Shown here: positions 1 to 64,000 of the stretch, one piece after another
Layout: each line of letters opens with the position of its first letter
Numbering within the stretch: position 1 is the first letter of the stretch
Origin: Candidatus Poribacteria bacterium
GTDB lineage: Bacteria; Poribacteria; WGA-4E; WGA-3G
Direction: 5' to 3'
Assembly (NCBI GenBank): GCA_965242965.1
Contig: OZ251518.1
Span: 371,680-435,679 of the forward strand
DNA length: 64,000 nucleotides
Notes under the pieces: model-generated
What the model was told of the DNA's origin: nothing
The model's database searches: none
What the model saw: only the letters and a program-made list of their open reading frames with translations
Made by a program: the position numbers and the translations under genes

Positions 1-257
1 TTGATGACAGGGTAGAGAATCGGTGTTTCCAATTTTCGGTTTGCCGTGCGAAATTGCAATTCGCCGATGCGTCCGTGTTCCGTGGCGGTGACGGTGCGGA
101 AGATAGTGGGCGTGCTGTCGGTTTTTGTATCGCGGGCGTTTTCGTGTGTGTGCATAAGTTGTTTTTGGTTCCTGTCTGTCGAGGGTTATAGATTATTAAT
201 ATGATACCACAAACGCGAATTTCGTGCAAAGAAAAAAACGCCTCGCTTTCATCGTAG

Positions 258-800
258 GCGGCGAAAATCCCCCTTTCACCGTAGGGCGAGGGCCTGTCCC
301 TCGCCATGCCTCGGTCTACCGAACGTTCGCGGGGGACAGGCCCCCGCGCTACGGAAAAAAACGCCTCCCTGTCACCGTAGGGCGAGGGCCTGTCCCTCGC
401 CATGCCTCGGTCTACCGAACGATCGCGGGGGCCTGTCCCCCGCGCTACGGTAAAAAACGGTCCTTGAGGCTCTGTAGGTCAGGATCGCCTGATCCTGACC
501 TGTTTGTGATCAGGCGATCACAAACTACAGATGGGGAAACACACATCGGGACGATGAGATCGCGGGGGACAGGCCCCCGCACTACGATAAAAAAACGCCT
601 TCCCTTCACGTAGGGCGAGGGCCTGTCCCTCGCCATGCCTCGGTCTACCGAACGATCGCGGGGGACAGGCCCCCGCACTACGATAAAAAAACGGGGCTTG
701 AGCCATCGCGGGGGACAGGCCCCCGCGCTACGGGAACATCGAGACCGGGAGGTCTCGCCTACCGGAAATTGAGCCCCGAGGTCTCGCCTACCGGACACAT
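258..800. repeat. Cluster of small palindromic repeats (REP/MITE-like): family 1 (GCGrGGG-ACAGG-CCCyCGC hairpins flanked by CCGTAG/CTACGG), family 2 (about 60-bp CTGTAG...CTACAG double hairpin at 470-535), family 3 (GAGACCGGGAGGTCTC(G/T)CCTAC at 735-800)
   Basis: Direct reading: repeated stem-loops with a conserved ACAGG/CCTGT loop. ORFs 224..613, 445..798 and 518..706 are translations of these repeats. Confidence 0.85.
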
Positions 801-848
801 CGGAATTATGAAAACCCTCAGATTAATATGATACCACAAACGCAAATT

Positions 849-3800
849 TCATGCAAATTTGATAAACGCCGCGCTGCAAATGACCTTGGGAGGGACACGG
901 ACGGACTGAATAGGTGGCACCTCGTCGCTTGCCAACGCCGACATATTGTAGCGGTGATAGAGGGTTTTCAACGCCGTTAACAACTCTTCGCCCGTGAGTT
1001 CGGCGCGATAGAGGCGGCTGATTTCGCGTTTGAGACGTTCTGTTAAGCGGCCGCGGAACGCTCGTTCAAGCGTCCCTATCGCGCGCTCTTCCGAGGTGCT
1101 GGCCAGCATCCTTAACTCCCGCAAAATGTATCGTTGCGCGCGGGACAACGTCTGTTTTGGAAAGGCGTTTCGCGTCCGACAGACTTCCGCTGCAGACGCT
1201 TTTTGGACTTGGGTGACGCGGGCGTTGTGATGGGCCGGAAGCGGTTTGCCTTGCAATTCGGCATCGCACTGGAGCAAGCGAAGGATTTCGGCAACATCGG
1301 TAGTCCGTTCAACGCCGTTTTCATCAAGCAGGACAAGCCGTCTTTGCTGTTCCTGTTCCCCGCGACAGCAGACGTAAGTGCCTTCTACTTCGGCGGGGAT
1401 GCCGGTGCGAATGCCATCTCTTAACTCGGCGATGCGCTGATATTCCGCTGGGTTTTGCCGTCTCAATTGCCGCAGCAACTCTTCCGCCTCACTTAATCCG
1501 AAGCCCGGTTCTTCGGTTTCTTCTTCCAAGAGGCTGAGTTGTTCGCCGTTCTGTTCATAAATGGCATACATCGCTTTTTCGTTGAGTTGCTCGGTGTTGT
1601 CAAGGATTGCCGCGTCTTCACCGATGGTATCGTGGATTTCCTGAATGCGGCATTGGAGTTTCTCGCGTAGCCCGAGGTTGCGTTCAATTCCCAATTCCGG
1701 CAGGAAATTGAACCCGTGGATTTCGTCAAATTGACTGCCAATCCTATCAATGCGGCCGAAGCGTTGGATTAAGCGCACCGGATTCCAGTGTAAATCGTAG
1801 TTGATGAGCATGCCGCAATCTTGCAGGTTCAATCCCTCGGCGAGGACATCTGTGGCGATGAGCGTCTCTATCTCGGTTTCATCCGACTTCAAGCGATGTT
1901 GATTGGCGTTCGGTGCGAACCGCTCGACGACGCGCCGCTTCCTATCGCTGCCGTGGCTATGGATAACCTCCGTATTCGCTGTGTGCAGGTTTCGGTAGAG
2001 ATAGTTTGCAGTATCAATATATTGTGTGAAGATGAGCCGTTTTTTGCCCTGCAGCGATGGCGATGCCAGCAACGCTTTCAACTTCTGAAGTTTCGCATCC
2101 TGCGCAGGCGTGATATGCTGAACCTTCTCGAAGATCTGGTTTAGAATACCGATGTCGTTCTGAATCGCCGCGCGAAGTTCAGGGACGTTGAAGTCACGGA
2201 TGTCGTATTGCGCGGAGGCTTCGCGGCGTGCTTCCAGAAACTGTGCAATGTCCCGTTCTTCCGGGCTGATGTCGGTTTCATCAGAAGTGCTCGCTTCATA
2301 GAGGATTTTCTGGGCATCGTCACCGGCTGGCACGATCCCATTTTCAAGCGCGCGGAGGAAATCGACGTGGACGTTATAGAACCGGGAGATAGTTGTCTTG
2401 AAGGCGTAAACACTGGATTCAAACCGTTTGAAGAGCAGAATACGCATGAGGCCCCGCAGGTTTCTACCCGCGCTCTGCAAATCCTGATACGGCGGGACAT
2501 TCTGACTCTCCTCCTTCACATAGTGCCAGAGGCCATACCGTGCATAAGTCAACTGCGCAGCGGTATCCGATTTACCGAGGTAATCGCGAATCTGTGCATA
2601 GAGCCCCTGATAGGTATCTTCAATGCTGTATTCAACCGTCTTGAGGGTGCGCTTCGGAAAGAACTGCTTGGTATCGCCGACGCGGACATAGGCGCGGCGT
2701 TCGCGGTTCAGGTAATCGGTGAATTGCGTTGCATCTACGGGTTCATCTGTCTCGGCATCGTAACCGTACCAACGCAAGATGTGGTTTCGCGTTCGGCGGA
2801 TGAGAATGTGTTGTAAAAGCGTCGGGAGGCTCCGTTCCCCGTTCTCAATCAAGCGGAAGTATTCGCGAAGATTTGGCGCGTCCACCGGCAACTGCGTTTC
2901 GTCGTTGAGATGGAAAAGTTTGAGTTGGTGGTAGATATCCCACGCGCTTTTATTGCGCGGTGTCGCTGTGAGGAAGCAGCACTTCTTATCGCCTGTTGTG
3001 AGGAATTCCTGCAAGACGCGGTAGCGTTGCGTAGTGGCATTTCGGAAGTTGTGGCTTTCGTCAACGAGGACAAAATCGCAGTGTCGATAGCGAATATCTT
3101 CAAAGAGCAATTCCCGCGCGTTTTCTTCCCCGCTACTTAAAAGCCCGGTGGAGAGGATTTGCGCGCCGAGGCGGTAGAGGACGTTATAGGATTCCCACAT
3201 GGACATAAGCGCGGGGGGACAGAGGATGAGCGGACGCGCCTGTTCAACTTGTTCAAAGTGCTTGACAATCGCCGAACCGATGTAACTTTTGCCGAGCCCG
3301 ACGACATCGGAGATGAAGACACCGCCGTATGCGTCAATAATCCGAATGGCTTGGGAAACGGCTACCTGCTGAAAATCCGCGAGTTGCGCTGTCAATTCGT
3401 CTGCCGGTGCGATGCGGCTCTCATCCGTTTCTACCCTATCTTTTACCAATTCGTAGAGCGTCTTCATGTAGATGTCATAAGGACGAACAAGCGCGAGGGC
3501 CCAGGAGGTTTGCATCTCGTCCATCAACGCCTTGTCAAAATCCTCTGCTTCGTCCCATAACGCGTCAAACCAGTCGCGGAGTTGCACCTGATTGGCGTTG
3601 CCGTGCACGACGACGTTCAATTCGGTGTTGCTGGTTAACCCTGCCAAGGTAAGATTCGATGAGCCGACGATGGAGATGCCGGATTCATATCCCGCGTTTT
3701 TGCCATAATCGAAAATATACGCCTTGGCGTGGAAACGCTCCTTCGTGTAAACCCTGACTTTCAGTTGTCCGCTAGCAATCATCTCCACGAGAGTTTTGAT

Positions 3801-4160
3801 GAGTTGCGCCGAGTCATCTGTCTGCGGCATGAATTCCATGCAGGCGCGGAGGTTTTGCGCTGTGTCACCGACGCGTGCCTTGCGTTCAACGCCGCGTGAA
3901 TAGCGGCGCGCCGACTGAATCTCGCCTACAGATGCCAATTGTCGATATCCTTCGGCGAGCTGCTCAATCGTCTCGCGTGTACTCGTATTCCCGATGAGGA
4001 GACGGAGCTCGGTGACGTTTTGCAGTGCTTCCGCGATGCCGGTAAAGCCGGTGAGGAAAAAATATCCGACAGCGAAGCGGGCGCGCTCTGTCTCCTCTAA
4101 CATGAGAGTGACGTTGTCGATGAGTTTTTCGGTGCGATTGTCGATAATGTCTTGTGGCAT
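849..4160 (-). CDS. PLD-family nuclease domain fused to an SNF2/SF2 helicase (1103 aa)
   Basis: N-terminal PLD HxK(x4)D(x6)GSxN motif (FHAKAYIFDYG...GSSNLT). Helicase motifs I VGLGKSY, II LVDESHNF, III LTATPRN, V/VI LIATDVLAEGLNL and QRFGRIDRIGS. The ATG lies 10 nt after the stop of the upstream repeat-protein gene, suggesting translational coupling. Confidence 0.8.
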   Translation of the reverse strand: MPQDIIDNRTEKLIDNVTLMLEETERARFAVGYFFLTGFTGIAEALQNVTELRLLIGNTSTRETIEQLAEGYRQLASVGEIQSARRYSRGVERKARVGDTAQNLRACMEFMPQTDDSAQLIKTLVEMIASGQLKVRVYTKERFHAKAYIFDYGKNAGYESGISIVGSSNLTLAGLTSNTELNVVVHGNANQVQLRDWFDALWDEAEDFDKALMDEMQTSWALALVRPYDIYMKTLYELVKDRVETDESRIAPADELTAQLADFQQVAVSQAIRIIDAYGGVFISDVVGLGKSYIGSAIVKHFEQVEQARPLILCPPALMSMWESYNVLYRLGAQILSTGLLSSGEENARELLFEDIRYRHCDFVLVDESHNFRNATTQRYRVLQEFLTTGDKKCCFLTATPRNKSAWDIYHQLKLFHLNDETQLPVDAPNLREYFRLIENGERSLPTLLQHILIRRTRNHILRWYGYDAETDEPVDATQFTDYLNRERRAYVRVGDTKQFFPKRTLKTVEYSIEDTYQGLYAQIRDYLGKSDTAAQLTYARYGLWHYVKEESQNVPPYQDLQSAGRNLRGLMRILLFKRFESSVYAFKTTISRFYNVHVDFLRALENGIVPAGDDAQKILYEASTSDETDISPEERDIAQFLEARREASAQYDIRDFNVPELRAAIQNDIGILNQIFEKVQHITPAQDAKLQKLKALLASPSLQGKKRLIFTQYIDTANYLYRNLHTANTEVIHSHGSDRKRRVVERFAPNANQHRLKSDETEIETLIATDVLAEGLNLQDCGMLINYDLHWNPVRLIQRFGRIDRIGSQFDEIHGFNFLPELGIERNLGLREKLQCRIQEIHDTIGEDAAILDNTEQLNEKAMYAIYEQNGEQLSLLEEETEEPGFGLSEAEELLRQLRRQNPAEYQRIAELRDGIRTGIPAEVEGTYVCCRGEQEQQRRLVLLDENGVERTTDVAEILRLLQCDAELQGKPLPAHHNARVTQVQKASAAEVCRTRNAFPKQTLSRAQRYILRELRMLASTSEERAIGTLERAFRGRLTERLKREISRLYRAELTGEELLTALKTLYHRYNMSALASDEVPPIQSVRVPPKVICSAAFIKFA

Positions 4161-4170: not shown

Positions 4171-6299
4171 TTATTTCAGGAGCTCTAATAGTGCATTTAT
4201 ACCTTTTACGCCGAGCACAGACAAAACTGTTGCAAAAGCGATGCTGACAATTCCGCCAAGGACGATCTTCCAGGGAGTCAGCGCGCCCTTCAATGCCTCA
4301 ACGGATTTTTCAGTGTTCACCAACTTTTCGTTCATATTGTCTAGTTGCACATCCCGTTTTGCGTCGCGTTCGGCACTAGCGGCGAGATGAGCTTCTGTCT
4401 TGGCTTGGAATTTCCCAATCTGCCGGAGGGACTCGTCAATGCTGCCTAAGCGTGCATCGCGTGCAGTGTCGCGTTCCGCACTGGCGGCGAGGAGTGCTTC
4501 TGTCTTGGCTTGGAATTCGCCAATCTGCCGGAGGGATTCGTCAATGCTGCCTAAGCGTGCATCGCGTGCAGTGTCGCGTTCCGCACCGGCGTTGAGGAGT
4601 GCTTCTGTCTTGGCTTGGAATTTCCCAATCTGCCGGAGGGATTCGTCAATGTTGCCTAAGCGTGCATCGCGTGCAGTGTCGCGTTCCGCACCGGCGTTGA
4701 GGAGTGCCTCTGTTTTCGCCTGGAATTTCGCGATGTCATCTAAGCGCGCGTCCCGTTCGGCATCGCGCGCTGCACTGGCATTGAGGAGTGCCTCTGTTTT
4801 CGCTTGGAATTCCCCAATCTGTTGGAATAACTCCCCGAGGTGTTCCAAGCGTGCATCGTGTGCAGCGTCGCGTTCCGCACCGGCGTTGAGGAGTGCCTCT
4901 GTTTTCGCTTGGAATTTCGCGATGTCGTCTAAGCGTGCATCCCATTCCGCGCCGCGTTCTGCACTAGCGGTGAGGAGTGCCTCTGTCTTCGTTTGGAATT
5001 CGCCAATCTGTTGGAACAACCCCTCAAGGTGTTTCAAACGTGCATCGCGCTCGGTATCGCGTTCGGCACTGGCGGTGAGGAGTGCTTCTGTCTTGGCTTG
5101 GAATTCGCCAATCTGCCGGAGGGACTCGTCAATGCGGACGAAGTGTGCATCGCGTTCGGCATCGCGTTCGGCACTGGCGGCGAGATGGGCCTCTGTCTTG
5201 GCTTGGAATTTCGCGATGTCCTCTAAGCGTGCATCCCATTCCGCGCCGCGTGCTGCACTAGCGTTGAGGAGTGCCTCGGTCTTGGTTTGGAATTCGCCAA
5301 TCTGTTGGAACAACCCCTCAAGGTGTTTCAAACGGGCATCGCGCTCGGTATCGCGTTCGGCACTGGCGTGAGGAGTGCTTCTGTCTTTGCTTGGAATTCC
5401 CCAATCTGCCGGAGGGACTCGTCAATGCGACCGAAGTGTGCATCGCGTGCAGCCTCGCGTTCTGCACTCGCGGCGAGATGGGCCTCTGTTTTCGCTTGGA
5501 ATTTCGCGATGTCATCTAAGCGTGCATCCCATTCCGCGCCGCGTGCTGCACTAGCGTTGAGGAGTGCCTCTGTCTTGGCTTGGAATTTCGCGATGTCATC
5601 TAAGCGTGCATCCCGTGCAGCGTCGCGTTCGGCACTGGCGTTGAGGAGTGCCTCGGTCCTGGTTTGGAATTCCCCAATCTGTTGGAACAACCCCTCAAGG
5701 TGTTCCACTCGGGCATCGCGTTCGGTGTCGCGCGCTGCACTGGCGGCGAGATGGGCCTCTGTCTTCACTTGGAATTCTCCGATTTGGCGGAGGGACTCGT
5801 CAATGCGACCGAAGTGTGCATCGCGTTCGGTGTCGCGCGCTGCACTGGCGTTGAGGAGTGCCTCAGTCTTGGTTTGAAATTCGCCAATCTGTTGGAACAA
5901 CCCCTCAAGGTGTTCCACTCGGGCATCGCGTTCGGTGTCGCGCGCTGCACTAGCGGTGAGATGAGCCTCTGTCTGCTCTTGAAACGCCGCTATCCGCTTG
6001 AACAATTCCTCAAGACTATCTAACCGCGTATCGCGTTTGGCATCTAATGCCTCAACTGCAGTCAATCGTGCATGCGTTTGGGTCTGGAGTTCTACAACGC
6101 GTTGGAGCAATTCCTCAGTGCCGTCCAGTCGTGCGTCGCGCGCTGCGTCGCGCTCAGCACTGGCAACGAGATACGCATCTCTTTTGACATCCAGTTCAGC
6201 ACTACGTTCTTGTATCTTCTCGATCCTCTCCAACCGAGGAATGCTTTCGTGACGTGCCGGCTCCGAAGCATTTTTAGGTTGATTATCGGTAGTTTTCAT
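4171..6299 (-). CDS. Tail-anchored coiled-coil protein made of about 17 tandem 35-aa (105-bp) repeats (unit ~RDARLGSIDESLRQIGEFQAKTEALLNASAERDTA). The frame is broken once near 5330-5375 (ORFs 5328..6299 and 4171..5331).
   Basis: 105-bp periodicity is visible in the DNA (e.g. 4441 vs 4546). C-terminal hydrophobic helix WKIVLGGIVSIAFATVLSVLGV. RBS AAGGAGAAACC before the ATG at 6299. One G is missing in the unit at about 5371-5376 relative to other units (cactggcgtgagg vs cactggcggtgagg). Confidence 0.6.
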
Positions 6300-6351
6300 C
6301 GGTTTCTCCTTGCAAATTTATTGTTAAGTATAAGTTTACCATACTTCAATA

Positions 6352-6388
6352 GGTTTGCGCAAGGATTTTTTTACAATCGATGCACCGC
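6352..6388. repeat. 37-bp direct repeat (ggtttgcgcaaggatttttttacaatcgatgcaccgc), left copy. The right copy at 6841..6877 overlaps the 3' end of the Uma2 remnant.
   Basis: Exact 37-bp identity read directly. The two copies bracket the 450-bp REP/MITE cluster. Confidence 0.8.
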
Positions 6389-6475
6389 ACGCGTGTTTCG
6401 CCTGTAATCAAATTAGGGTGTTTCATAAATCCGTGTAGGAGAAACCTCCAGGTCCTGATATCGGCCGCGCAAGCC

Positions 6476-6838
6476 AACGCTCGCGGGGGACAGGCCCCCG
6501 CGCTACGAAAAAAACTTCTCTTAGGTCCGTAGGACCTTAATGTCTATAGCACGCGCGTCTGTGAAGAACCCTAAGGTCCTTTAGGTCCTTAATAGATTTT
6601 GCCTTACCGCGTGGTTTTGATTAAGGACCTAAAGGACCTTGAAAAGGGACCTGCACGTTTTTCTATAGACATATAGGACCTAAAGGACCTAAAACGCGAT
6701 TCTTGATGATGGAGATCGCGGGGGACAGGCCCCCGCGCTACGGGAACATCGAGACCAGGAGGTCTCTCCTACCGGGGAGTCGAGACCGGGAGGGCGCGCC
6801 TACGGAGAGAAATCGAGACCGGGAGGTCTCTCCTACCG
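6476..6838. repeat. REP/MITE cluster: family 1, family 3 (x3), and copy 1 of a composite ~190-bp MITE-like element (6520..6700) with TAGGTCCTTAATGTCTATAG-type terminal inverted repeats and internal AAGGACCTAAAGGACCTT palindromes
   Basis: Direct reading. The same composite element recurs at 29090..29280 and 43105..43295. Confidence 0.8.
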
Positions 6839-6859
6839 GCGGTTTGCGCAAGGATTTTT

Positions 6860-7168
6860 TTACAATCGATGCACCGCGACGAACTCCGGCGTGGCTCCCT
6901 CTTCCCAAACGGCAGACGTCCGCCGGTCTTTTTTGCCAACACCGAAAATAACGAATACGTCAGGGGCAACCGAACGCCTGTTTTCGGGGGTGCCGTAATA
7001 GATGAGCAAATTTCCGGACACATACACATCGGGCGCGTGCCGGAAGTGGTGCTCCAACGTCTGAATAAGGGACATCATTACTCTTCGGTGTTTATCGGTT
7101 TCTGCCATAGGTTTTCCATCTGATTCGGGTAGGGTGAGTGTCGGCGCAGAGCGTATTTGTTGCAACAT
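6860..7168 (-). pseudogene. Uma2-family (DUF820) putative endonuclease, truncated remnant (102 aa; ends where the conserved E-V-L-SP segment should begin)
   Basis: Motifs DGKPMAE...H, LLIYY, APDVFVIFGV, DRRTSAVWEEG, PEFVAV are typical of Uma2/DUF820. The stop lies inside the 37-bp direct repeat. Confidence 0.55.
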
Positions 7169-7276: not shown

Positions 7277-7465
7277 TCAACTCCGCGCCTTCTTAAGCCT
7301 AGTTTCAACGAGATTGATAACCGCCTCGTAAACGCCATCACGCTCGCCTTGCGTCAATTCCAAGATGTCAAAGATGACGTTGTCAATCGCGATGCGCGCC
7401 GGTGAAGGCGATAAAACGTCCCATTCTTCGGATGCGAGGAGGGATGCATTTACCCCCCCCCTCAA
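7277..7465 (-). CDS. Probable displaced C-terminal segment of the adjacent methyltransferase (62-aa ORF in an alternate frame, beginning inside the G9 tract)
   Basis: Overlaps the MTase ORF by 83 nt in another frame. Its peptide (…DNVIFDILELTQGERDGVYEAVINLVETRLKKA) looks protein-like, whereas the MTase tail after the tract (KCIPPRIRRMGRFIAFTGAHRD) does not. Confidence 0.4.
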   Translation of the reverse strand: MRGGVNASLLASEEWDVLSPSPARIAIDNVIFDILELTQGERDGVYEAVINLVETRLKKARS

Positions 7466-10400
7466 AATTCATGTCTGTTAAGTTAGGGTTAACACATCGT
7501 AGCTCTCCCAAATCCGAGGTTTGGAGTTCTAACTCCCCATATCCTAGGTTTGAGCGACCGTTCACGTTCACCATCAACTGGAAGAAAGTAGAATTGAGGG
7601 AGAAACAGAGAGGTATCCTCAACTCAAGTGCGCATTGGAGTTCCATAAACTTGCCAGTCACATAACACCCCTCACTGGCATACAATGTTTTTGCCGTTGA
7701 ACGCATCCGGTGCGCAAAACTCATATACGGAGGCGGGCGTTTGCCCACATCATACCATCGCCGTCTAGATCGGATGCTCGGCCGCTGAGGCAGTTTCTGG
7801 CTTTCACCCGATTCAATGTATGCCAACGCAGCGGTGCCTCTTAAGGCTTCTCTCTCCTTTTGACACAGAAAGAGTTGATGTGGTGATTGTTCGGGGCGAA
7901 TCAACAGGCTCTCAGTGACTCTCCTGTCGTTGACAATCGGGTGTAAAAACTCTGGCTCAATATGCCACGCCGAAATCGTCTCCGCATCAAGGATGAAAAA
8001 CTGGTTTGCCCCGCTCATGATTCCTCGCCGAATCTGAGCGATGTCGCCGACACGGACGAGTTTATCCGAGCCTTTTTCTAGTAATGTCCAATAGATGTCG
8101 GGAGCGCGCAGATACTTCGCGCCCCATTTGTTTCCGGTATACTTCGTCTTTGCATCCATTCCGGCGGCTAAAAGTGCATCCTGCGAGAGAAGGTGAATTC
8201 GATATTCAGGCAGAGCATTCCGCTGGATTTCGGTTTCGATTTCGTAAAAGATGACAGGATCCAAAATAGCCTCAAACGGTTCGGTAAAGTTAACAAACCG
8301 CACAATGTCTTGCAAACCTGATGCGCTATCTCTAACCGGGGCGGAGATGAGACAAATAGCAGTGTTGATATTTACGGCTTTGAAGGAACGTCGTGCCGCG
8401 TTGTCCAAAACCAGTTTGAGATGACACCGCTTAAGGAGGAATTCCTGCAAATCTTTGCCGAAGTCCGCATCTAACCACGATCTGGATGTGATAGTGCAGA
8501 AGGTTCCTTTGGGATTTAGCAACGAGAGTCCGTGAAAGTAGAAGTAGACGTAGAGATCGCTGTTGCCATCTAGTTTATGCTTCACGGCAGACGCGGGGTT
8601 TTCCTTCGTATCCTTCTCCGGTTGATACCCGAAGAATGCAGGGAACGCCTGATAAACGGAACGCGCCAACTTGGCTTTATACGCCTTCGTGTTAGCGGGT
8701 GTAACCGCGTCTCGGGCTAGCGTCGGGTCTGTGAGTTTTTTCGTTGAAACGTAAGGCGGGTTTTCTATCACGATGTCAAAACCACCATACTGTTTGAAAA
8801 TCTCAACGAAGGCAATGTCCCACACGAAAGGTGGAACTGCATCTGACGTAAGGGCATGCTGGGCACGTTGGAGGTTGTTGAGATTCGCCTGTTGAAGTGC
8901 CAACTCCTGTTGCTTTTGCCGAGTTGCAAGATCTAATTGCGCTGCCTGGGGTTTCTCAATCCCGTCAAGCGTCAGTTGTTCAGCCGGATCTTCAAGCCAT
9001 TCCTGTAAACCTGCAATGCCTTCCAAAATTTGGCTTTCCTGCGACTGCAGTGTCTCCCGAAAGAGCAAGTTCTCGGCGCGTTGCACATCCGCTTTCTCAC
9101 GATATTTCCGCTCACGTTCGTTGTGATAAAACTTCAGTTTCTCTGTCTGGTGGAATACGATTTTGCGCGAGATGTCAGTCGGCACGCCGCTGCCCAACGC
9201 GCGCGTCTGCGCGAGGTTCATCCCACCGATGTCCTGCACCAGACTATCGCCGTGACGAATGTTAAACGAAAAATCAGGCAGCAAGGGCTCCTCGCGAATC
9301 TGCAGTTCCGCGGTGGAAATCTCTGCCTCAATGATGAGCGCGAGCCAGAGGCGTAACTCGGCAACTTTGCATGCCCACGGCATCACGTCTACGCCGTAGA
9401 GATTCTTGCCGATAATCGCCTTGCGGCGTTCAAACCTTGAGGTAACAGATGCACCGAGGTGCCGTGCGGCGCGTTCCCCCAGGTCATCGAGAATATGGAG
9501 CATGCCGACGAGAAACGAACCGCTGCCACACGCCGGATCCAACACCGTGAGACGGTTCAGATGCGTCGCGATATCACCCCACTGCGCGGCGAGGTGGGCA
9601 TCGGCATCTTCCTTCTCTGTTTCATCGAACGTAAAGAGTGCGGCGTAAAATTGATGCTTATGCGCCTCACCGATGTGATTTGCGAGGTTATCTACGAGCG
9701 CGAGACGGCACATCATATCTATCTCGATGCGCGGCGTGTAGAAGATGCCGGCATCGCCGCGTTCATCGGTTTCAGCGGAGACACTGACGAGACTCTCGTA
9801 GACTTTGCCGATCATCTCGGGGTCTACGGCGACTTCCTGTTCCAGCGGGGTATCCTCGGCGATGGTGAAGTTATATCCCTCGAAGAACTGGAAGATGTCG
9901 CGCCATAAATCATCGGGAATCGTGGTGGCATACTCGGTATCCCATTCGTTTTCTCGGAATAAGCCGCCGTTGAGATAGGGCGCGTGCTGAAGCGTTTCGC
10001 GGATGTTGTCAGGAAAGTAACGATATCCGCCGTGAAACTTCTGATTGAAAGCGGCGAAGAAGAGGACGTTGAGCCACTTTGCCACGAAGGTATCCGCTGG
10101 TTGCGTTGCGTTTTGATACGCCTGCCAAAACGTGTGCAGGAAATCGGTGTCGTTTCCGAGCCACCGTTTTCGCTGGATGAAATAGAGGAAGAGGCAGCGG
10201 CTGAGGAATTGTTGGGCTGCATCGTGCGCCCACTTTTTATCAGCGGTTTGCGTTTCCAACTCGGTTTGGAGGTTTCTGAAGACGCGCTGATAGTCGGCGA
10301 AAAACTGCGCTGTCACGGCATCGACATCGAAGGCGGCATCGTGCTGTTTGGTAATTTGCAGAGGTGTCAGCAGCTCTGGATTTGGGAAGAGGCTCTCCTG

Positions 10401-10886
10401 TTGGCCGTCAATGGCTATCGTCGCCAGATCGAGCATTGCGATACGTTCGGCGGCGGTGCGGAGTTTTTCATCGGGCGCGACAGTGATGCGCCGGAATCGG
10501 TGGCGTGCCTTGTGTTTCTTGCTTGCCTCGCGGACGAGTGTGACGTTGACGAAGTGCCAGTGGTCTTGCGCAATATTGCTAAAGATGTAGAGCGCGTGCG
10601 GGAAGCGCGTCTGCAAGTGCGCGATGACGCGGCGTTCGGCGGTCTTGCGGGGTGTTTCGGTATTGAGGCGCGCGTATATGATGTGAAAGTCGTTATCCCT
10701 ACCCCCGGCGGCAAAGCGTCGCGGTGCCTCGGCGAGGCAGTCGGCGATGGCTTCCGGGATGTTCTCAATCGGTTCATCGATGCGGTGATAATTGAGTTCT
10801 ACCCAAAAGAGTTCGCGCAGGGGTTCGATGCCGCGGAGGTTTTGTAGCAGAGTTAAGATGCGTTCGGTGTTTTCGGGTGTTGGCAT
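7383..10886 (-). CDS. Large gamma-class N6-adenine DNA methyltransferase, 1167 aa (Type IIG / BREX PglX / DISARM DrmMI-like). The true C-terminus is probably in the 7277..7465 frame.
   Basis: Motif X AGIFYTPR, motif I VLDPACGSGSFLV, motif IV IENPPY. A long N-terminal region precedes the MTase core. The C(9) run at 7453..7461 sits at the frame junction. Confidence 0.75.
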   Translation of the reverse strand: MPTPENTERILTLLQNLRGIEPLRELFWVELNYHRIDEPIENIPEAIADCLAEAPRRFAAGGRDNDFHIIYARLNTETPRKTAERRVIAHLQTRFPHALYIFSNIAQDHWHFVNVTLVREASKKHKARHRFRRITVAPDEKLRTAAERIAMLDLATIAIDGQQESLFPNPELLTPLQITKQHDAAFDVDAVTAQFFADYQRVFRNLQTELETQTADKKWAHDAAQQFLSRCLFLYFIQRKRWLGNDTDFLHTFWQAYQNATQPADTFVAKWLNVLFFAAFNQKFHGGYRYFPDNIRETLQHAPYLNGGLFRENEWDTEYATTIPDDLWRDIFQFFEGYNFTIAEDTPLEQEVAVDPEMIGKVYESLVSVSAETDERGDAGIFYTPRIEIDMMCRLALVDNLANHIGEAHKHQFYAALFTFDETEKEDADAHLAAQWGDIATHLNRLTVLDPACGSGSFLVGMLHILDDLGERAARHLGASVTSRFERRKAIIGKNLYGVDVMPWACKVAELRLWLALIIEAEISTAELQIREEPLLPDFSFNIRHGDSLVQDIGGMNLAQTRALGSGVPTDISRKIVFHQTEKLKFYHNERERKYREKADVQRAENLLFRETLQSQESQILEGIAGLQEWLEDPAEQLTLDGIEKPQAAQLDLATRQKQQELALQQANLNNLQRAQHALTSDAVPPFVWDIAFVEIFKQYGGFDIVIENPPYVSTKKLTDPTLARDAVTPANTKAYKAKLARSVYQAFPAFFGYQPEKDTKENPASAVKHKLDGNSDLYVYFYFHGLSLLNPKGTFCTITSRSWLDADFGKDLQEFLLKRCHLKLVLDNAARRSFKAVNINTAICLISAPVRDSASGLQDIVRFVNFTEPFEAILDPVIFYEIETEIQRNALPEYRIHLLSQDALLAAGMDAKTKYTGNKWGAKYLRAPDIYWTLLEKGSDKLVRVGDIAQIRRGIMSGANQFFILDAETISAWHIEPEFLHPIVNDRRVTESLLIRPEQSPHQLFLCQKEREALRGTAALAYIESGESQKLPQRPSIRSRRRWYDVGKRPPPYMSFAHRMRSTAKTLYASEGCYVTGKFMELQCALELRIPLCFSLNSTFFQLMVNVNGRSNLGYGELELQTSDLGELRCVNPNLTDMNFEGGGKCIPPRIRRMGRFIAFTGAHRD

Positions 10887-10961
10887 GCCGTTGTCTCCGA
10901 TTCTTAAGGTTTACGATATTATAGGAGAAAAGCGGATTTTAAGTCAAGGAATTTCATGATC

Positions 10962-11140
10962 GGCATGGCGAGGGACAGGCCCTCGCCCTACGGGAAAACG
11001 GACCGTTCCGGATACCGTAGCGCGGGGGCCTGTCCCCCGCGAGCGTTCAGTAGACCGGAGCCTGGCGAGGGACAGGCCCTCGCCCTACGGTGTTCGATGC
11101 GGTTTCAGCATGGCGAGGGACAGGCCCTCGCCCTACGGGG
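10962..11140. repeat. REP cluster (family 1, four or more hairpins)
   Basis: GGCGAGGGACAGGCCCTCGCCCTACGG units read directly. Confidence 0.85.
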
Positions 11141-11142
11141 AA

Positions 11143-12375: not shown

Positions 12376-12410
12376 ATGTGCGGGTAGGCGCGCGTGGAAA
12401 GCGCGCCCAC
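12376..12410. terminator. GC-rich hairpin CGGGTAGGCGCGC-GTGGAAA-GCGCGCCCAC. It belongs to a small hairpin family also seen at 17720..17745 and 37515..37545.
   Basis: Read directly. Lies between the argD-like start and the dehydratase stop. No T-run, so its terminator role is uncertain. Confidence 0.3.
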
Positions 12411-12424
12411 GGGCTGAATCAGTT

Positions 12425-13561: not shown

Positions 13562-13603
13562 CAATTTTCCTCCTTAGTTAATCAGTGTGTTTCATAAATC
13601 GTT

Positions 13604-14863: not shown

Positions 14864-14875
14864 CTGTCCCCGGCG

Positions 14876-51813: not shown

Positions 51814-51824
51814 AAAAAACGCCG

Positions 51825-52270: not shown

Positions 52271-52308
52271 CGAACTACAAACCGAGGAATTGACAATAGG
52301 ACTACGTT

Positions 52309-53673
52309 ATGCAAGAAAACAGACACAATCAAACGCCACGCGAAATCCGAAAAATTGATAAGGCGCATGTGTGGCATCCGCTTTTTCAACATCAACGGCT
52401 TGAAGAGACAGACCTGCTCGTCATCAAGTCGGCGCACGGGACGACGCTTGTGGACGAAGAAGGCAGGGAATATTTAGACGCATACTCGGCACTGTGGAAC
52501 GTCAACGTCGGCTATGGCAGGCAGGAGATTGCGGATGCAGTCTACGCGCAGATTCAGCAGTTGCCGTATTATCCGCACTCGCAGATTAACGCGCCGGCGA
52601 CGATGCTGGCGGAGCAGTTATCGGCGTGCTTGCCGGGCGATCTGAACCACGTCTATTTCTGCAACAGCGGTTCTGAGGCGAATGAGACGGCTATCAAGAT
52701 TGCGCGCCAATACGGGAGGCAAACCTACCCGGGTGAGAATCGCTATAAAATCATCAGTCGGTATCGCGGGTATCATGGATTCACTTACGGCGCGTTGTCG
52801 GCGACGGGACAGGCGCGTCGGCGGAAGGCGTTTGAGCCGCTCGTCCCTGGTTTTTACCACGCGCAGCCGCCTTACTGTTATCGGTGTCCGTTAGGCTTAG
52901 CATCTTCTACTTGCAACGTCGGTTGCGCCGAGGACATCGCGCGGATTATTCAGTCTGAGGGCCCCGAGACGGTGATTGCCGTTATCGCGGAACCTATCAT
53001 CGGTGGGGGCGGCGTGATTGTGCCGCCGGCTGAATATTTGCCGAAACTCCGCGAAATCTGCGATGCTTATGGGCTGCTGCTTATCCTTGACGAAGTGATT
53101 ACAGGGTTTGGAAGGACCGGGAAGATGTTCGCATGTGAGCATTGGGGGGTCCAACCAGACCTGATTACGCTTGCCAAGGGGTTGACGAGCGGCTATGTCC
53201 CCCTCGGTGCGTGTGTTGCATCGACGAAGGTGTTTGAGGCGTTCCTCGGTGGGCCCGATGATAATAACGAGTTCGCGCAGGTTTGCACCTATGGTGGACA
53301 TCCTGTCGCTTGCGCCGCCGGTGTGGCGAATCTGAACATTTTGCAGGAAGAACGTCTCTGGGAAAACGCCGATAAGGTGGGGAGTTATCTCCTTGAAAAA
53401 CTGACGACGTTGAAAACTTTGCCTATCGTTGGTGATGTGCGCGGCAAAGGTTTGATGTTGGCGGTGGAGTTAGTTCAGGCTGATGGCGCGCATCTGGAAA
53501 CGGCGCACACGAACCGTATCGTCGGTGCATTGCGCGAGAAAGGCGTTATCGTCGGTAAGATTGGACACGCCGTGGACGAACCGGAGAACATCATTTTCAT
53601 CGCGCCACCGCTCATTCTCACTGAGGTTGAGGCGGATAGAATTTTTGAGACGCTCCGTGCTGTTCTCCGGTAG
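52309..53673 (+). CDS. Class III PLP aminotransferase (omega-transaminase/BioA-like)
   Basis: [33 protein letters not shown] motifs. Confidence 0.8.
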
Positions 53674-54591: not shown

Positions 54592-54639
54592 ACGTTCTCC
54601 TAAAAAGCGTTGGGATTGTGAGGTTCATCCTATTGTTTG

Positions 54640-54805
54640 TCGAGACCAGGAGGTCTCTCCTACTGTCTTTCAAGACTCCGGAATCCGTAGGGCGAGGGCC
54701 TGTCCCTCGCCACCTTGCAAGCCCCCGGGATCCGTAGGGCGAGGGCCTGTCCCTCGCCACCTTGCAAGCCCCCGGGATCCGTAGGGCGAGGGCCTGTCCC
54801 TCGCC
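54640..54805. repeat. REP cluster (family 3, then 3 tandem copies of GGGATCCGTAGGGCGAGGGCCTGTCCCTCGCCACCTTGCAAGCCCCC)
   Basis: Direct reading. Confidence 0.85.
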
Positions 54806-54834
54806 ACCTTGCAAGACTAATTGAGAAACGAAAC

Positions 54835-56450: not shown

Positions 56451-56499
56451 AAGCGTTCCTCTCTGTTGTTCTGAGTCAGAATTTGTGGTGGGCCCCTCC

Positions 56500-56800
56500 T
56501 ACAGTAAGATATCGGTTCCACCTCTGTAGTTCGGGAGCGCCCGATCTCGAACGGATCAGGATCTGGCGATCCTGATCTACAGAATCAGCGTGGCGATCGA
56601 ACGATGGCGAGGGACAGGCCCTCGCCCTACGTGAATGGGCGGCGTTTTTTTCATCGTAGCGCGGGGGCCCTCGCATGCCATACGCGCATGCGAGCGGGTT
56701 TCCCCCGCGATCGTTGCATGGCGAGGGACAGGCCCTCGCCCTACGGTAAGCAGCACGTTTTCCCTCATCCCGCGATCGTTGCACGGCGAGGGACAGGTTT
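56500..56800. repeat. REP cluster (families 2, 1)
   Basis: Direct reading. Confidence 0.85.
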
Positions 56801-59325: not shown

Positions 59326-59439
59326 GTGTGGATGTAGGCAATCGTGCCTCAAGCAAGAACGTAGTCAACGTAATCTGAGGGTGTTTCATAAGTCCGTTTC
59401 GGTATTTATTCCGCCTTGGAGGGCTGGCGAACACCAGAA

Positions 59440-59705
59440 GGCATCGGGTCCATCTCTGTAGTTCGGGCTCGCCTGATCCCGAATGGGGCATGGAGAGGAG
59501 AACCCCTCCCTGGCCCGTAGCGCGGGGGCCTGTCCCCCGCGATCGTTCGATCTGCGCGAAAAACGCACACTGGCCAAAGCCGTTTCCCCAATCGAGGCAC
59601 GGCGAGGGACAGGCCCTCGCCCTACGGGCCAGGGCGGCGTTTTTTCACCGTAGCGCGGGGCCCTCGGATGCCACACGCGCATCCGAGCGGGTTTCACCGC
59701 GACGT
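59440..59705. repeat. REP cluster (families 2, 1)
   Basis: Direct reading. Confidence 0.85.
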
Positions 59706-59770
59706 TGAGCGAGTTATGAAACACCCTCAACGTAATCTGGCAGTGTCAATAATGGCATCGGTGGAGAGAC

Positions 59771-60523
59771 ATGCAACGACAAGAAGTGTCCGCTGAACGC
59801 ATTGGGAAAGACGAAAAACTCAGAGGCGTAATCCTTGCCGGCGGTTTAGGCACGCGCCTGCATCCGCTTACCAAAGTGACGAGTAAGCATCTGCTGCCGG
59901 TGGGTAACGAACCGATGATTTTTCATTGCGTCAAGCAGTTCACCTCGGCAGGCGTTACGGATATCCTCATCGTGACGAATCCGGAGTATGTCGGCGATTT
60001 TGCGAGGGTTCTTGGTGGCGGTGCCGAGTTCGGGTGTGAGTTCACCTATCGCGTGCAGGAGGAGGCTAAGGGCATTGCGCACGCGCTTGCACTAGCGGAG
60101 GGATTCGCTGCCGGTGGCAGGATTGTCGTATTTCTGGGCGATAACGTTTTTGAATCGCCTATTCAGCCCGCGGTTGCGGATTTCCTTGCGCAACGAGAGG
60201 GTGCGCGCGTCATGCTCAAGCAGGTGCCAGATCCTCGGCGTTACGGCGTTGCGGTTCTGGACGACAATCGCATCGTTGCGATTGAGGAGAAACCGCCGCA
60301 TCCGAAAAGCGATTACGCGGTGGTAGGTGTCTATTTTTACGATGGGGCTGTTTTTGACATTATCCGCACGATTGAACCCTCGGCGCGCGGTGAATATGAG
60401 ATAACGGCTGTCAACAACGTTTATCTCCGCCGTGGGCTGCTTGAATACAGCGTCGTGCAGGGAAGGTGGGTTGACGCTGGCACGTTTGATTCGCTAAATG
60501 AGGCGCATCATATTTTGTTGTAG
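59771..60523 (+). CDS. Sugar-phosphate nucleotidyltransferase (RmlA/G1P-thymidylyltransferase-like short form)
   Basis: GVILAGGLGTRLHPLT...K motif. Confidence 0.7.
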   Translation: MQRQEVSAERIGKDEKLRGVILAGGLGTRLHPLTKVTSKHLLPVGNEPMIFHCVKQFTSAGVTDILIVTNPEYVGDFARVLGGGAEFGCEFTYRVQEEAKGIAHALALAEGFAAGGRIVVFLGDNVFESPIQPAVADFLAQREGARVMLKQVPDPRRYGVAVLDDNRIVAIEEKPPHPKSDYAVVGVYFYDGAVFDIIRTIEPSARGEYEITAVNNVYLRRGLLEYSVVQGRWVDAGTFDSLNEAHHILL

Positions 60524-60539
60524 GTGGGCATCGGGACCG

Positions 60540-60660
60540 GGAGGGGAAGTCGGGAGCGGGAGGTTTCGCCTACCCGTTCGGGAGCAGGTGCTCCCGAACT
60601 ACAGTCATATTGCATCGAGACCAGGAGGTCTCGCCTACGGGACCGGGAGGTCTCTCCTAC
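60540..60660. repeat. REP cluster (family 3 x3 plus family 2 half)
   Basis: Direct reading. Confidence 0.85.
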
Positions 60661-60690
60661 GGTAATTTTGATAATGGCATTGGTAAATAA

Positions 60691-62009: not shown

Positions 62010-62170
62010 TGCATCAAGACCAGGAGGTCTCTCCTACCGAGGGATGCATCGAAACTTCTGTAGTTTGTGATCGCCTGATCACAAACATGTCAGGTCTCTC
62101 CTACCGGGGGGAGAATCGAGATGCGGGAAGCTATTGCATCGAGACCGGGAGGTCTCTCCTACCGGGACGT
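62010..62170. repeat. REP cluster (family 3 x3, family 2)
   Basis: Direct reading. The caller ORF start at 62134 lies inside it. Confidence 0.85.
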
Positions 62171-62193: not shown

Positions 62194-63339
62194 GTGGATG
62201 TTTTGGATACGCATGCCGATAATTGGCGCGCCGAATTTCCGGTAACCGAAAACTATATCTATATGAACCACGCCGGGGTCGCGCCGTTATCGCGGCGGGT
62301 GCGGGAGGCGATGACAGCGTTTGTGGAAGATGCCACCGTGAACGGTGCGGTTCATGCTGACATTTGGGCAGAAACGGCGGAAGAGTGCCGTGTTGCAGCG
62401 GCGCGCTTTCTTAATGCCGACGCGGCTGAGATTGCGTTCATGAAAAATACGACGCAAGGGATTCTCATCGCAGCGAACGGTATTGATTGGCGCGCCGGGG
62501 ACAACGTCGTCACAACGGCGGTTGAGTTTCCGGCTAATGTTTACCCTTGGTGGAGCTTGAAGGAACGCTACGGCGTTGAGACGCGCATGGTGCCGGAACG
62601 CAATGGATGCATCGACATTGCTGATATTGCCGATGCCGTGGATGCGCGCACCCGCGCCGTGACGATTAGCCACGTTGAATTCGCCTCCGGGTTCCGCAAT
62701 GACATTCGGGCCATCGGCGAGTTGTGCCGAGCGCGCGATGTCTGGTTCATCGTTGACGCGATTCAGAGCCTCGGTGCAATTGAGGTTGATGTCAAGGCGG
62801 CGCACGTCGATATCCTCGCCGCCGATGGACATAAGTGGCTACTTGCACCGGAAGGAGCGGCGATTTTCTATTGTGCCGCCGAGAAATTGGAACGGCTCAT
62901 TAACACCAACGTCGGATGGGCAAGCGTTGTGAATCCGCGCGATTTTCTTAACTATGAACTGACCCAAAAACCGGACGCGACTCGGTTTGAAGAGGGCTCT
63001 TACAACAGCGTTGGTTTGTATGGGCTCAAGGCGGCGATTGAATTGTTGCTGGAGGTGGGCATCGCTAATGTTGCGGCGCGCGTTTTGAGGCTGACAGCAC
63101 ATTTAATGGCGGGGTTAGAGGCGAAAGGGTATCGCGTTGTCACGCCGAAAGCAGATAGTTCGCGGGCGGGGATTGTGATTTTTGAAAGTCCGCGGCATGC
63201 GCCTGCTGAGATTGAGGAGCTGCTTCGCGATGAACGTATCATCACGGCGGCGCGCGGGAGCGGTGTCAGAGTCTCGCCGCATTTTTACAACACGGAATTG
63301 GAAATAGCTCGTTTGTTAGAGGTGCTCCCCGTTTTGTGA
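62194..63339 (+). CDS. Class V PLP aminotransferase / cysteine-desulfurase-like (start uncertain: GTG 62194, or later)
   Basis: IYMNHAGVAPLS N-terminus, HVEFASG, ILAADGHKWLLAPEG (PLP-lysine region). Confidence 0.7.
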   Translation: MDVLDTHADNWRAEFPVTENYIYMNHAGVAPLSRRVREAMTAFVEDATVNGAVHADIWAETAEECRVAAARFLNADAAEIAFMKNTTQGILIAANGIDWRAGDNVVTTAVEFPANVYPWWSLKERYGVETRMVPERNGCIDIADIADAVDARTRAVTISHVEFASGFRNDIRAIGELCRARDVWFIVDAIQSLGAIEVDVKAAHVDILAADGHKWLLAPEGAAIFYCAAEKLERLINTNVGWASVVNPRDFLNYELTQKPDATRFEEGSYNSVGLYGLKAAIELLLEVGIANVAARVLRLTAHLMAGLEAKGYRVVTPKADSSRAGIVIFESPRHAPAEIEELLRDERIITAARGSGVRVSPHFYNTELEIARLLEVLPVL

Positions 63340-63394
63340 AACAGGATGTATGCAAGATGCGAGTTGGAGAAAAACAAGCAAGGAAGGGTAAAAA

Positions 63395-64000
63395 TTGATT
63401 AGACAGAGACAAAATAACGTTCGCGGTTACGCGTGCTCCTCGTTCTGGGTGATGCTCGGTTTTCTGGTGATGCTTGGGAGTTGCACGGTGCCGGGTGGCA
63501 ACCAGAAGATTAGCAAGATCCGCCTCTCCGTCCAAAATCCGCTGCCTATCCATCGGCAGAATGTTCCGATCGTGCTAACGGGCGAGTATCTCCGGAAAGT
63601 CAATTCGGATTTTTCCTTTAAGGCGTATTCCGTGGTTGTTGGGAAAGCCCCTCAGGAACGGATGCTTTCGTCACAAGCCGATGACTTGGACTACGATGGT
63701 GAGCGCGATCAGCTCAGTTTCTTGCTGGATTTGGAACCGGAGGAGACAAAGGAGATTTCCATTCTTTATGACGCTACCGTGGAGGCGGCATTAACGTTGG
63801 AACTCAATAAACAGACGCGGGCGGGCATTTTTCCGGAACTTAACGCCGTGGCGGCGATGGAATCCAACCTCATTGCGTATGTTTTGAAACCAGACGGTGG
63901 TATCGTCGCGTATGGCAAAAAACGGGCGGAACTCTTCAGCATTGATTCGGTGTTTCAGTATGAGTTGGACTCGGGGCAGCCGCTTTCCCCCGACTTTCGT
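63395..64000 (+). CDS. Partial (3'-truncated by the window end) lipoprotein, function unknown
   Basis: RBS AAGGAAGGG. Signal FWVMLGFLVMLGSC lipobox. Open frame runs to the end of the window. Confidence 0.5.
   Translation, partial: MIRQRQNNVRGYACSSFWVMLGFLVMLGSCTVPGGNQKISKIRLSVQNPLPIHRQNVPIVLTGEYLRKVNSDFSFKAYSVVVGKAPQERMLSSQADDLDYDGERDQLSFLLDLEPEETKEISILYDATVEAALTLELNKQTRAGIFPELNAVAAMESNLIAYVLKPDGGIVAYGKKRAELFSIDSVFQYELDSGQPLSPDFR

Follow-up and report, generated by a model that had tools for sequence, protein, structure and literature searches.

Clusters of GTAG-tagged repetitive extragenic palindromes occupy 13.5% of a Poribacteria chromosomal window and are in part the cargo of miniature inverted-repeat composites

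We analyzed 64,000 nucleotides of contig OZ251518.1 from a Candidatus Poribacteria bacterium (positions 371,680 to 435,679; this whole stretch is called the window here), in which short palindromic repeats crowd the intergenic regions. Four of the repeat families, namely, families 1, 2, 3, and 5, share one build, GTAG followed by a hairpin, and we identify them, together with family 6, as repetitive extragenic palindromes (REPs). It is very likely that these REPs were spread in trans by a REP-associated tyrosine transposase (RAYT), that part of them are carried as cargo of a MITE (miniature inverted-repeat transposable element), and that their clusters were reshaped by duplication and recombination. 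The window is a very dense instance of the already known type of REPs and bacterial interspersed mosaic elements (BIMEs), the REP-laden MITE being its less ordinary part.

The repeats lie in 28 clusters that cover 8,611 bp, or 13.5% of the window, in agreement with the figure of about 13% given in an earlier note made from the sequence alone. Sequences of 11 nt present at least three times cover 10.8% of the window, two coding repeat regions excluded, and a block-shuffled control was nearly empty, with just 19 distinct 11-mers present at least three times. Counting GTAG followed by a stem of at least 7 bp, one mismatch allowed, gave 128 units, i.e., 2.0 per kb. The five families listed in the note were all present where it had placed them. 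Family 1, with the core GGGCCTGTCCC / GGGACAGGCCC, is represented by 64 exact copies and 4 copies with one mismatch, and family 2 by 45 monomers making up about 22 doublets of 59 bp with the layout CTGTAG-22 nt-3 nt-22 nt-CTACAG, the spacer thus measuring 3 nt where the note had given 2 nt. Families 3 to 6 were counted by Hamming scan, giving 22 copies of family 3 (up to 5 mismatches), three palindromic elements of about 185 bp for family 4 (6520-6695, 29090-29265, and 43110-43290), and, for family 5, three single hairpins (12384, 17725, and 37516) and four copies inside composite units. The list had missed a sixth family, in which a family-1 stem holds the inner hairpin CTCGGATGCCAYACGCGCATCCGAG (15 copies), as well as terminal inverted repeats (TIRs), in-frame intragenic copies, and the shared GTAG tag. 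Units are mostly paired in regular inverted dimers, 1a>-22-1b< and 2>-3-2< (arrowheads give the orientation), and their strand distribution, 72 minus versus 56 plus, is uninformative since most belong to such pairs.

The repeats also generate spurious open reading frames (ORFs), as the note had said: 41 of the 319 ORFs of at least 60 amino acids lie by more than 50% inside clusters, and the three peptides that it had quoted, GRGPVPRHA, AGACPPR, and SGSPDPDLF, were found 18, 25, and 4 times, respectively, in the six-frame translation. Read-through of REPs supplies part or all of the length of ORFs 38458-40323, 25056-26333, and 28994-29599, the last being 83% repeat.

The GTAG tag is close to invariant. 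In family 1, whose loop was read as CCTGT, it lies 5' of the stem in 62 of the 64 exact-core copies and in 63 of all 68 copies; all family-3 matches start with GTAG, family-5 units are likewise tagged, and family-2 monomers were collected by requiring GTAG and at most two stem mismatches. In an unbiased census of perfect hairpins with stems of 8 bp or more, GTAG stood directly before 96 out of 448, making it the top tetranucleotide by a wide margin, and 24% of the GTAGs in the window are followed by such a hairpin. Family 1 consists of four stem types, GGCGAGGG, CGCGGGGG, CGCGAGGG, and GGCGGGGG (1a to 1d), with an exactly matching 3' arm in each, and the partners of a doublet always differ at two stem positions (a with b or c with d); each single hairpin is perfect, and the long hairpin of the doublet carries mismatches. 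In family 2, six of the nine stem pairs vary on both sides, a covariation reached by none of 500 shuffles, and 96.9% of the cells are paired compared to 27 to 50% with the partner slid, although selecting monomers with at most two mismatches raises the paired percentage while leaving the two-sided changes unaffected. The compensatory variation reported earlier for family 2 was thus confirmed, and family 1 shows the same. In families 1 and 2, the loop has a fixed orientation relative to GTAG, which would be expected if a folded single strand is recognized in a strand-specific way. Stems measure 7 to 9 bp or more in families 1, 2, 5, and 6, with predicted single-stranded DNA folding energies from -10.5 to -26.4 kcal/mol (z from -3.9 to -8.2), and the folds predicted for families 1, 2, and 6 are strong. 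The 76-nt family-1 doublet is predicted to form one long hairpin (-31 kcal/mol, z = -7.0), and the family-2 doublet two adjacent hairpins closed by a CTCTGTAG/CTACAGAG stem (-26.4 kcal/mol, z = -8.2).

Such strong stem covariation would also fit host regulatory elements, be they terminators, stabilizers of mRNA 3' ends, or sites for DNA gyrase or integration host factor, that are selected and locally duplicated and are not mobile. Tandem duplication is indeed frequent, most clusters lie between co-directional or convergent genes, and roles of this kind are attributed to REPs and BIMEs of other bacteria in sections of PMC8266576 and PMC3733652. However, terminator-like sites in 20 kb numbered 31 versus 21.9 ± 4.9 expected, few of them are REPs, the hairpins mostly have no T tract, and the T runs that clusters do contain are about 20 nt away from them. 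The hairpins are thus no canonical terminators; those of the window (36474-36501 and about 31370) stand beside the repeats and not inside them, and for the terminator role proposed in the note there is a weak enrichment. Clusters were found in intergenic regions of every gene orientation, including the divergent promoter regions 22776-23034, 26157-26550, 30597-30788, and 54640-54815, and in coding sequence, and orthologous sites in close relatives were empty, with no visible substitute. We consider a purely regulatory, immobile nature of the hairpins improbable, and a regulatory role is in any case compatible with a mobile origin rather than opposed to it.

The tag and the folded stem point to RAYTs. 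No RAYT was found in the window by tblastn with 120 RAYT homologs, and Pfam searches of about 40 ORFs detected no transposase domain there, but genes for putative RAYTs were found outside the window, in related Poribacteria, flanked by family-1 REPs. In L002, a locus from a closed 5.0-Mb Poribacteria genome, a 169-amino-acid ORF (L002:7098-7604, minus strand) matched Pfam Y1_Tnp (E = 1.2e-6), and its best NCBIfam match was NF047646, REP-associated tyrosine transposase, with 57.7 bits compared to 25.5 bits for IS200. The protein harbors an HxH motif, a conserved tyrosine, and the RAYT-type motifs WxEHxIR and YIxxNP; among 29 sequences, namely, this ORF and its homologs, H76, H78, Y146, N150, and W125 are invariant and H132 and R135 nearly so. 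Several of the homologs are named "REP element-mobilizing transposase RayT" by the Joint Genome Institute (JGI). Family-1 REPs lie at the flanks of the L002 gene, and two homologs on sponge-metagenome contigs (L042 and L043), 82 to 85% identical, have family-1 doublet arrays on both sides; in L042, the stop codon of the RAYT gene is supplied by GTAG. At least two GTAG hairpins were found beside the gene in 6 of 6 more distant relatives and in 73 of 80 metagenomic relatives, with family-1-like stems (GGGC...TGTG...GCCC). GTAG near these genes was several-fold above five of six control tetranucleotides, the sixth, TAGG, being the one-base offset of GTAG. Among the options raised in the note, that of REP-like elements served in trans by a REP-associated transposase is the one favored by the GTAG tag, by the lack of a RAYT in the window, and by the family-1-flanked putative RAYTs of related Poribacteria. 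The link between family 1 and RAYT is thus plain in the relatives and, judged from their sequences, predicted for this genome.

Part of the clusters turned out to be framed. A terminal motif of 14 to 16 nt, (G)AGGGTGTTTCATAA, occurs in 20 copies in the window, 19 of which stand at a cluster edge and face inward, the remaining one lying at 28998 inside the cluster 28700-29560. Seven complete pairs of inverted ends, AGGGTGTTTCATAA...TTATGAAACACCCT, frame composites of 246 to 616 bp. Five of these are collinear over their whole length, in the order end, optional 40-nt extension, family-2 doublet, linker, family 1a, T-rich linker, family 1b or 6, end; some composites also carry families 3, 4, and 5. 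Direct repeats of 13, 11, 9, and 8 nt flank four of the seven TIR pairs, whereas among 18-nt flanks paired at random a shared stretch of at least 8 nt is seen in only 0.3% of cases.

The composite at 59378-59727 (plus strand) consists of a TIR with type-A extension, half a family-2 doublet, 1b, 1a, family 6, and a TIR, within a direct repeat of 12 to 13 nt, (T)CAACGTAATCTG. That at 13584-13831 (minus strand) holds a 1b-like unit, 1a, and a family-2 doublet between its TIRs and has the 9-nt direct repeat AGTTAATCA, while that at 22779-23034 (plus strand) holds a family-2 doublet, 1a, and family 6 and has the 8-nt direct repeat GATTTATT. The fourth, at 42856-43333 (plus strand), contains family 3, two family-6 units in an 88-bp tandem repeat, and a family-4 element between its TIRs and is flanked by an 11-nt duplication, CGTTAAGACTG. 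Three plus-strand composites are bounded by TIRs but have no target-site duplication: 31401-31828 (426 bp; 2>2< 1a< 1b> 6< 5> 3<), 35812-36429 (616 bp; 3> 5< 1a>1b<1a> 1b< 6> 2>2<), and 44977-45366 (TIR with type-A extension, a family-3-like unit, family-2 doublet, 1a, 6, TIR).

The history of one insertion could be read from two contigs syntenic with the window, L049 (about 95% identical) and L050 (about 91% identical). At 42856-43333 the filled site of the window reads CGTTAAGACTG-[478-bp element]-CGTTAAGACTG and L049 carries the element as well, whereas L050 has an empty site, a single CGTTAGGATTG between the same two genes. At the position of the composite 44977-45366, L050 has a different sequence of 68 bp. 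Transposition by HUH/Y1 enzymes (the IS200/IS605 family) leaves no target duplication, and the duplications seen here thus indicate that the composite is a MITE moved by a different transposase, probably of the DDE type. We conclude that the TIR-bounded clusters are MITE-like composites carrying REPs as cargo. The adjacency of the families, for which nested insertion preferences had been suggested, is better explained by this recurrent TIR-bounded composite with its target-site duplications, by tandem duplication, and by recombination between copies. Copies of the elements are also present beyond the window, and close relatives show polymorphism for them, the two points on which the note had made its proposals depend.

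In the mechanism that we propose, the unit is GTAG plus a GC-rich hairpin with a strand-specific loop, typically in inverted doublets like those of BIMEs or of REPINs, the REP doublets known from other bacteria. By analogy with known systems, a single-copy HUH/Y1 transposase (RAYT, or TnpA_REP) encoded elsewhere in the genome probably spreads the REPs and would bind the folded single-stranded hairpin plus GTAG. The MITE inserts whole and duplicates about 8 to 13 bp of its target, pointing to a second, DDE-type transposase, and REPs are thereby copied also as MITE cargo; afterwards, clusters gain and lose units through tandem duplication and through recombination of one copy with another. We observed the anatomy, the GTAG tag, the covariation, the association of RAYT with REPs in relatives, and the insertion polymorphism with its duplication; catalysis by RAYT in this genome, the RAYT that serves families 2, 3, and 5, and the transposase that moves the MITE are inferred.

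A single DDE-type MITE might do without RAYT or any REP mechanism, all families then being its internal pieces and decayed fragments and the solo copies its deletion remnants. Many units do stand in a fixed order inside TIR-bounded composites, the five collinear copies and the insertion of a whole unit with target duplication fit such an origin, and truncated composites exist, for instance, at 30595-30800 (TIR at 30601, family-2 doublet, and an inverted type-A end without outer TIR); truncated MITEs can look like REPs, according to a review (PMC10969869). However, family-1 doublets lie at the flanks of RAYT genes in related Poribacteria, and families 1, 2, 3, and 5 occur in two other Poribacteria species, in which none of 41 fetched loci has the terminal motif. 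In addition, every family retains the GTAG tag and a strand-specific loop, neither of which a DDE MITE needs, and pure family-1 arrays as well as intragenic pairs have no MITE ends nearby. An origin of all families from one MITE is therefore, in our estimation, very improbable. An assembly or chimerism artifact of metagenome-derived sequence, to which the breaks and N gaps at repeats in short-read contigs of relatives might point, has next to no chance of being correct, since the same elements with the same architecture occupy the same site in the independent, 95% identical assembly L049, are also present in the closed 5.0-Mb genome and in another metagenome-assembled genome (MAG), and lie between intact and syntenic genes.

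Besides the selection effect in family 2, several observations weigh against REPs that are spread by a RAYT and in part carried by a MITE. Family 3 folds weakly (-5.3 kcal/mol, z = -1.4), with a stem of 6 to 7 bp. The L002 RAYT stays below the curated NCBIfam cutoff (57.7 versus 80 bits), its sole PDB match, E. coli TnpA_REP, is weak, and the presence of a RAYT in this organism is deduced from relatives, none being encoded in the window. REPs of the family-2 or family-3 type were found at 0 of 90 RAYT loci examined and family 5 was likewise not found there, only family 1 flanking RAYT. Of the seven TIR pairs, three are without a duplication. A search for an autonomous insertion sequence that has the MITE ends, which did not extend to the source genome itself, found none: the extended 31-nt end gave 0 hits in metagenomes of the JGI, and L049 and L050 are the only fetched loci in which the terminal motif occurs, where no transposase accompanies it. 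The ends may resemble those of IS903, which makes a 9-bp duplication, but no conclusion is drawn here from this resemblance. To these is added the state of the L050 assembly, which bears on the comparison of densities given next.

Clusters differ in size and number between close relatives. GTAG hairpins in the syntenic 17 kb amount to 2.3 per kb in the window versus 0.23 per kb in L050, a difference that may in part be an assembly effect, since L050 is a scaffold of short reads in which N gaps occupy two cluster positions and which ends at a repeat. Tandem arrays are common in the window (142 bp × 3.5, 47 bp × 3.2, 96 bp × 2, 88 bp × 2, and 49 bp × 2.6). An indel that distinguishes the window from L049 in the cluster 40385-41040 (1a< 6> 1b> 2>2< 1a<1b> 2>2< 1a<, with a terminal solo TIR at 41019-41031) has direct copies of family 1b at its borders, suggesting that repeats recombined with each other. 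We tentatively suggest, with the balance of probability somewhat against us, that two simultaneous REP routes, RAYT and MITE cargo, together with tandem amplification produced a recent lineage-specific burst, on the basis of a repeat density about ten-fold above that of the about 91% identical relative at the same loci. Should the window be typical of the genome, noncoding REPs would make up more than 10% of it, well above the 0.1 to 0.5 REPs per kb that follow from E. coli and Pseudomonas copy numbers. Families 1, 2, 3, and 5 are often arranged in tandem arrays in the two other Poribacteria species sampled, and the presence of families 2, 3, and 5 there indicates that these are old residents of the phylum.

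Repeats also border a difference in gene content. A 4.4-kb segment (47947-52356) is absent from L050, in which the arginyl-tRNA synthetase and aminotransferase genes lie 85 to 112 bp apart. It holds a Type ISP-like methylase/specificity gene (48625-51813), in which no helicase or nuclease domains were detected, with REP arrays on both sides. The left border of the insertion with this restriction-modification-like gene (47970-48600) is an array of a family-2 doublet plus 1b, the 142-bp unit being repeated 3.5 times with 96% identity, and the right border of the insertion, which L050 lacks, is the cluster 51825-52285 (1d>1c<1d>, a family-2 unit, 1c<, 2>2<, 2>2<). The segment looks like a gene gain or loss at a REP hot spot.

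Two genes have taken up REPs in frame and are apparently intact. The acyl-CoA synthetase gene (23356-25059) contains two family-3 REPs (24464-24557, minus strand), and its product has 41 extra in-frame residues, exactly at these units, compared to a 66% identical ortholog. In the Type ISP-like gene, two in-frame family-1b REPs (50394-50477, minus strand) add about 28 residues between the methylase and specificity domains.

Family 4 stands apart, as it consists of nested inverted repeats, TTAGGTCCTTTAGGTCCTTAATGTCTATAG ... CTATAGACATTAAGGACCTAAAGGACCTAA, with no GTAG tag, and a clear target duplication was not observed for it. L049 has more copies of it (about 606-811, 995-1216, 4252-4474, and 6223-6398) than the window, and the family is polymorphic between both.

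The repeats of the window have close counterparts elsewhere. REPs are defined, in the parts of PMC8266576 and PMC3733652 devoted to them, as palindromes of 20 to 50 nt that have GTAG in front of them and that TnpA_REP, or RAYT, an HUH/Y1 enzyme, processes, and PMC3733652 there describes multiple families per genome, complementary stem subfamilies, head-head and tail-tail dimers, tandem clusters, in-frame intragenic copies, and spurious ORFs. With the GTAG-tagged REPs and BIMEs of E. coli, Pseudomonas, and Stenotrophomonas (SMAG), as far as these are covered in those parts of PMC3733652 (Di Nocera et al. 2013), the window shares GTAG followed by a GC-rich stem of 6 to 13 bp and a short loop, subfamilies with complementary changes, several families, dimers, mosaic clusters, tandem units that include flanking DNA, in-frame copies, spurious ORFs, and GTAG serving as the stop codon of a neighboring ORF (here at the L042 RAYT). 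It differs in its density of about 2 units per kb, or 13.5% of the sequence, compared to roughly 0.1 to 0.5 per kb by our own arithmetic from the counts given in a section of PMC8266576, namely, about 600 copies in E. coli K-12 and thousands in some Pseudomonas strains. It also differs in that five or more families reside side by side, interleaved in an order that recurs, and that many units lie inside a frame that has TIRs as well as duplications of the target.

REPIN-RAYT systems (Bertels and Rainey 2011, PMC3116915; REPtrons, PMC8266576) are alike in that two inverted REPs give a longer hairpin, that the RAYT is, in the relatives, flanked by cognate REPs, and that families persist across Poribacteria species. 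In contrast to them, family-1 partners differ at two stem positions and their long hairpin is mismatched, families 2, 3, and 5 have no known cognate RAYT, and the RAYT was seen in relatives only.

The composites, too, can be compared with known elements. The MITE Chunjie, a possible carrier of REPs although two reviews mention none in it, serves here only as an example of a MITE with 9-bp direct repeats. It is likewise small, without ORF, and equipped with TIRs (21 bp) and target direct repeats (9 bp), as described in part of PMC3184786, and REP dimers within longer palindromes are known from GTAG-15 of Anabaena variabilis and CGTC-1 of H. neapolitanus, as set out in a section of PMC3733652. 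Unlike these, the frame and its REP cargo insert here as a unit, as the empty site and the 11-nt duplication indicate, and up to five families make up the cargo, in a mosaic that varies; neither empty-site proof nor multifamily REP cargo appears in the relevant part of PMC3733652 or in the review accounts of Chunjie. The intragenic copies, adding 28 to 41 residues between domains, recall the in-frame palindromic inserts of Rickettsia treated in parts of PMC3733652 and PMC10969869, but they number two cases in 64 kb and are ordinary GTAG REPs, with no dedicated family of Rickettsia palindromic elements.

An exact 25-nt family-1 REP (GTAG, stem, and CCTGT loop) was also observed in contigs of Chloroflexi and Myxococcales MAGs with 61 to 69% G+C (L005:7870-7894, L013:3109-3133, and L025:4028-4052, in L025 as an inverted pair), which could reflect convergence in a widespread REP class or horizontal spread.

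Three other classes of repeat were considered and rejected: CRISPR, given that the spacing is irregular and units alternate in orientation; integron attC sites, on anatomy; and known RNA families, as there was no Rfam match in the window at gathering thresholds.

To our knowledge, REP/RAYT systems have been studied almost only in Proteobacteria, and no description of REPs in Poribacteria was found in the literature searched. The window shows them in an uncultivated phylum of sponge symbionts, at a density several-fold above that of the classic examples. In practice, the repeats inflate gene calls and misplace start codons, several real genes gaining false N-terminal extensions, and they break short-read assemblies of these symbionts. 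They also mark sites of gene gain, such as that of the REP-bounded restriction-modification-like gene absent from the close relative. Presence/absence differences among relatives that are 91 to 95% identical would be usable as strain markers and would offer a natural system for the study of REP turnover. The REP-laden MITE shows how mobile DNA of one class can travel inside that of another, and we regard it, together with the apparent lineage-specific burst, as worth following up.

The remaining clusters are mosaics of the same units. The cluster 231-800 (1a>1b<1a> 2>2< 1b<1a>1b<1b<3<) includes the 96-bp tandem repeat, present twice at 271-459, and 6400-6880 combines a solo TIR (6416), family 3, 1b, the family-4 element 6520-6695, 1b, and three family-3/5 units. 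The small cluster 10950-11145 is of family 1 only (1a<1b>1a<1a<). The order family 2, 1a, 5, 3 recurs, being found in 19040-19300 (3, 2>2<, 1a<, 5>, 3<) and, within 6, 2>2<, 1a<, 5>, 3<, 2>2<, TIR<, in 26150-26555, which ends in a solo right end (26537-26549). At 20125-20620, a solo TIR (20130) is accompanied by 3>1b>1a<1b> 2>2< 1b>1a< 3<. The largest cluster, 28700-29560, lies between convergent genes and comprises 1a/1c units, the TIR at 28998, two family-3 units, the family-4 element 29090-29265, 1c, 3, a family-2 unit, and 1a/1c units in the 49-bp × 2.6 tandem repeat. ORF 38458-40323 reads, with its 5' part, through the cluster 38500-39015, which is of families 6 and 1, and its Pfam domains begin only at residue 224. 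Toward the end of the window follow 54635-54820 (one family-3 unit and then three tandem family-1a units, the 47-bp × 3.2 array), 56495-56800 (2>2< 1a< 6> 1a<), 60520-60665 (one family-2 monomer and two family-3 units), and 62010-62170 (family 3, one family-2 monomer, and family 3). The single family-5 REPs are GTAG-GCGCGCG-TGGAAA-GCGCGCC at 12381-12413 (plus strand), GTAG-GCGCGC-TTTCAGAA-CGCGC at 17722-17750 (minus strand), and the symmetric GGTAG-GCGCGG-TTTGAAAT-CGCGC-CTAC at 37514-37544.

The surroundings of the repeats are those of an ordinary chromosome. The window has a G+C content of 54 to 57% and encodes an arginyl-tRNA synthetase, aminotransferases, GFO/IDH/MocA oxidoreductases, PhyH dioxygenases, xylose-isomerase-like TIM barrels, restriction-modification-type methylases, and HicB paralogs; no tRNA genes were found in it. 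A search with the family-1 repeat pattern matched mainly Poribacteria genomes, the closest relatives of a window protein came from Candidatus Poribacteria or from sponge and Tara metagenomes, and the top relative of any window protein was 95% identical. Judged by these matches, the source is a Poribacteria sponge symbiont.

Some neighboring genes deserve mention. A 1,103-amino-acid fusion of a PLD-like nuclease with SNF2/Helicase_C (849-4160) and a 1,167-amino-acid Eco57I/MmeI-type methylase (7383-10886) lie near each other and may form a defense island. Between them, on the minus strand, a long coding region of 105-bp (35-amino-acid) tandem repeats with super-periods of 84, 189, 210, and 294 bp (4171-6299) gave no Pfam match; its division into ORFs 4171-5331 and 5328-6299 points to a frameshift or to an error in sequencing. 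Three tandem HicB-like antitoxin paralogs of 242, 237, and 232 amino acids (13835-16568) each contain two HicB_lk_antitox stretches and are separated by repeated spacers of about 300 bp. Finally, both syntenic relatives carry two tandem copies of a gene of 186/187 amino acids (L049:1594-2154 and L050:1474-2034), the first copy of which is, in the window, a 15-codon stub (41040-41100) right after the terminal repeat 41019-41031.

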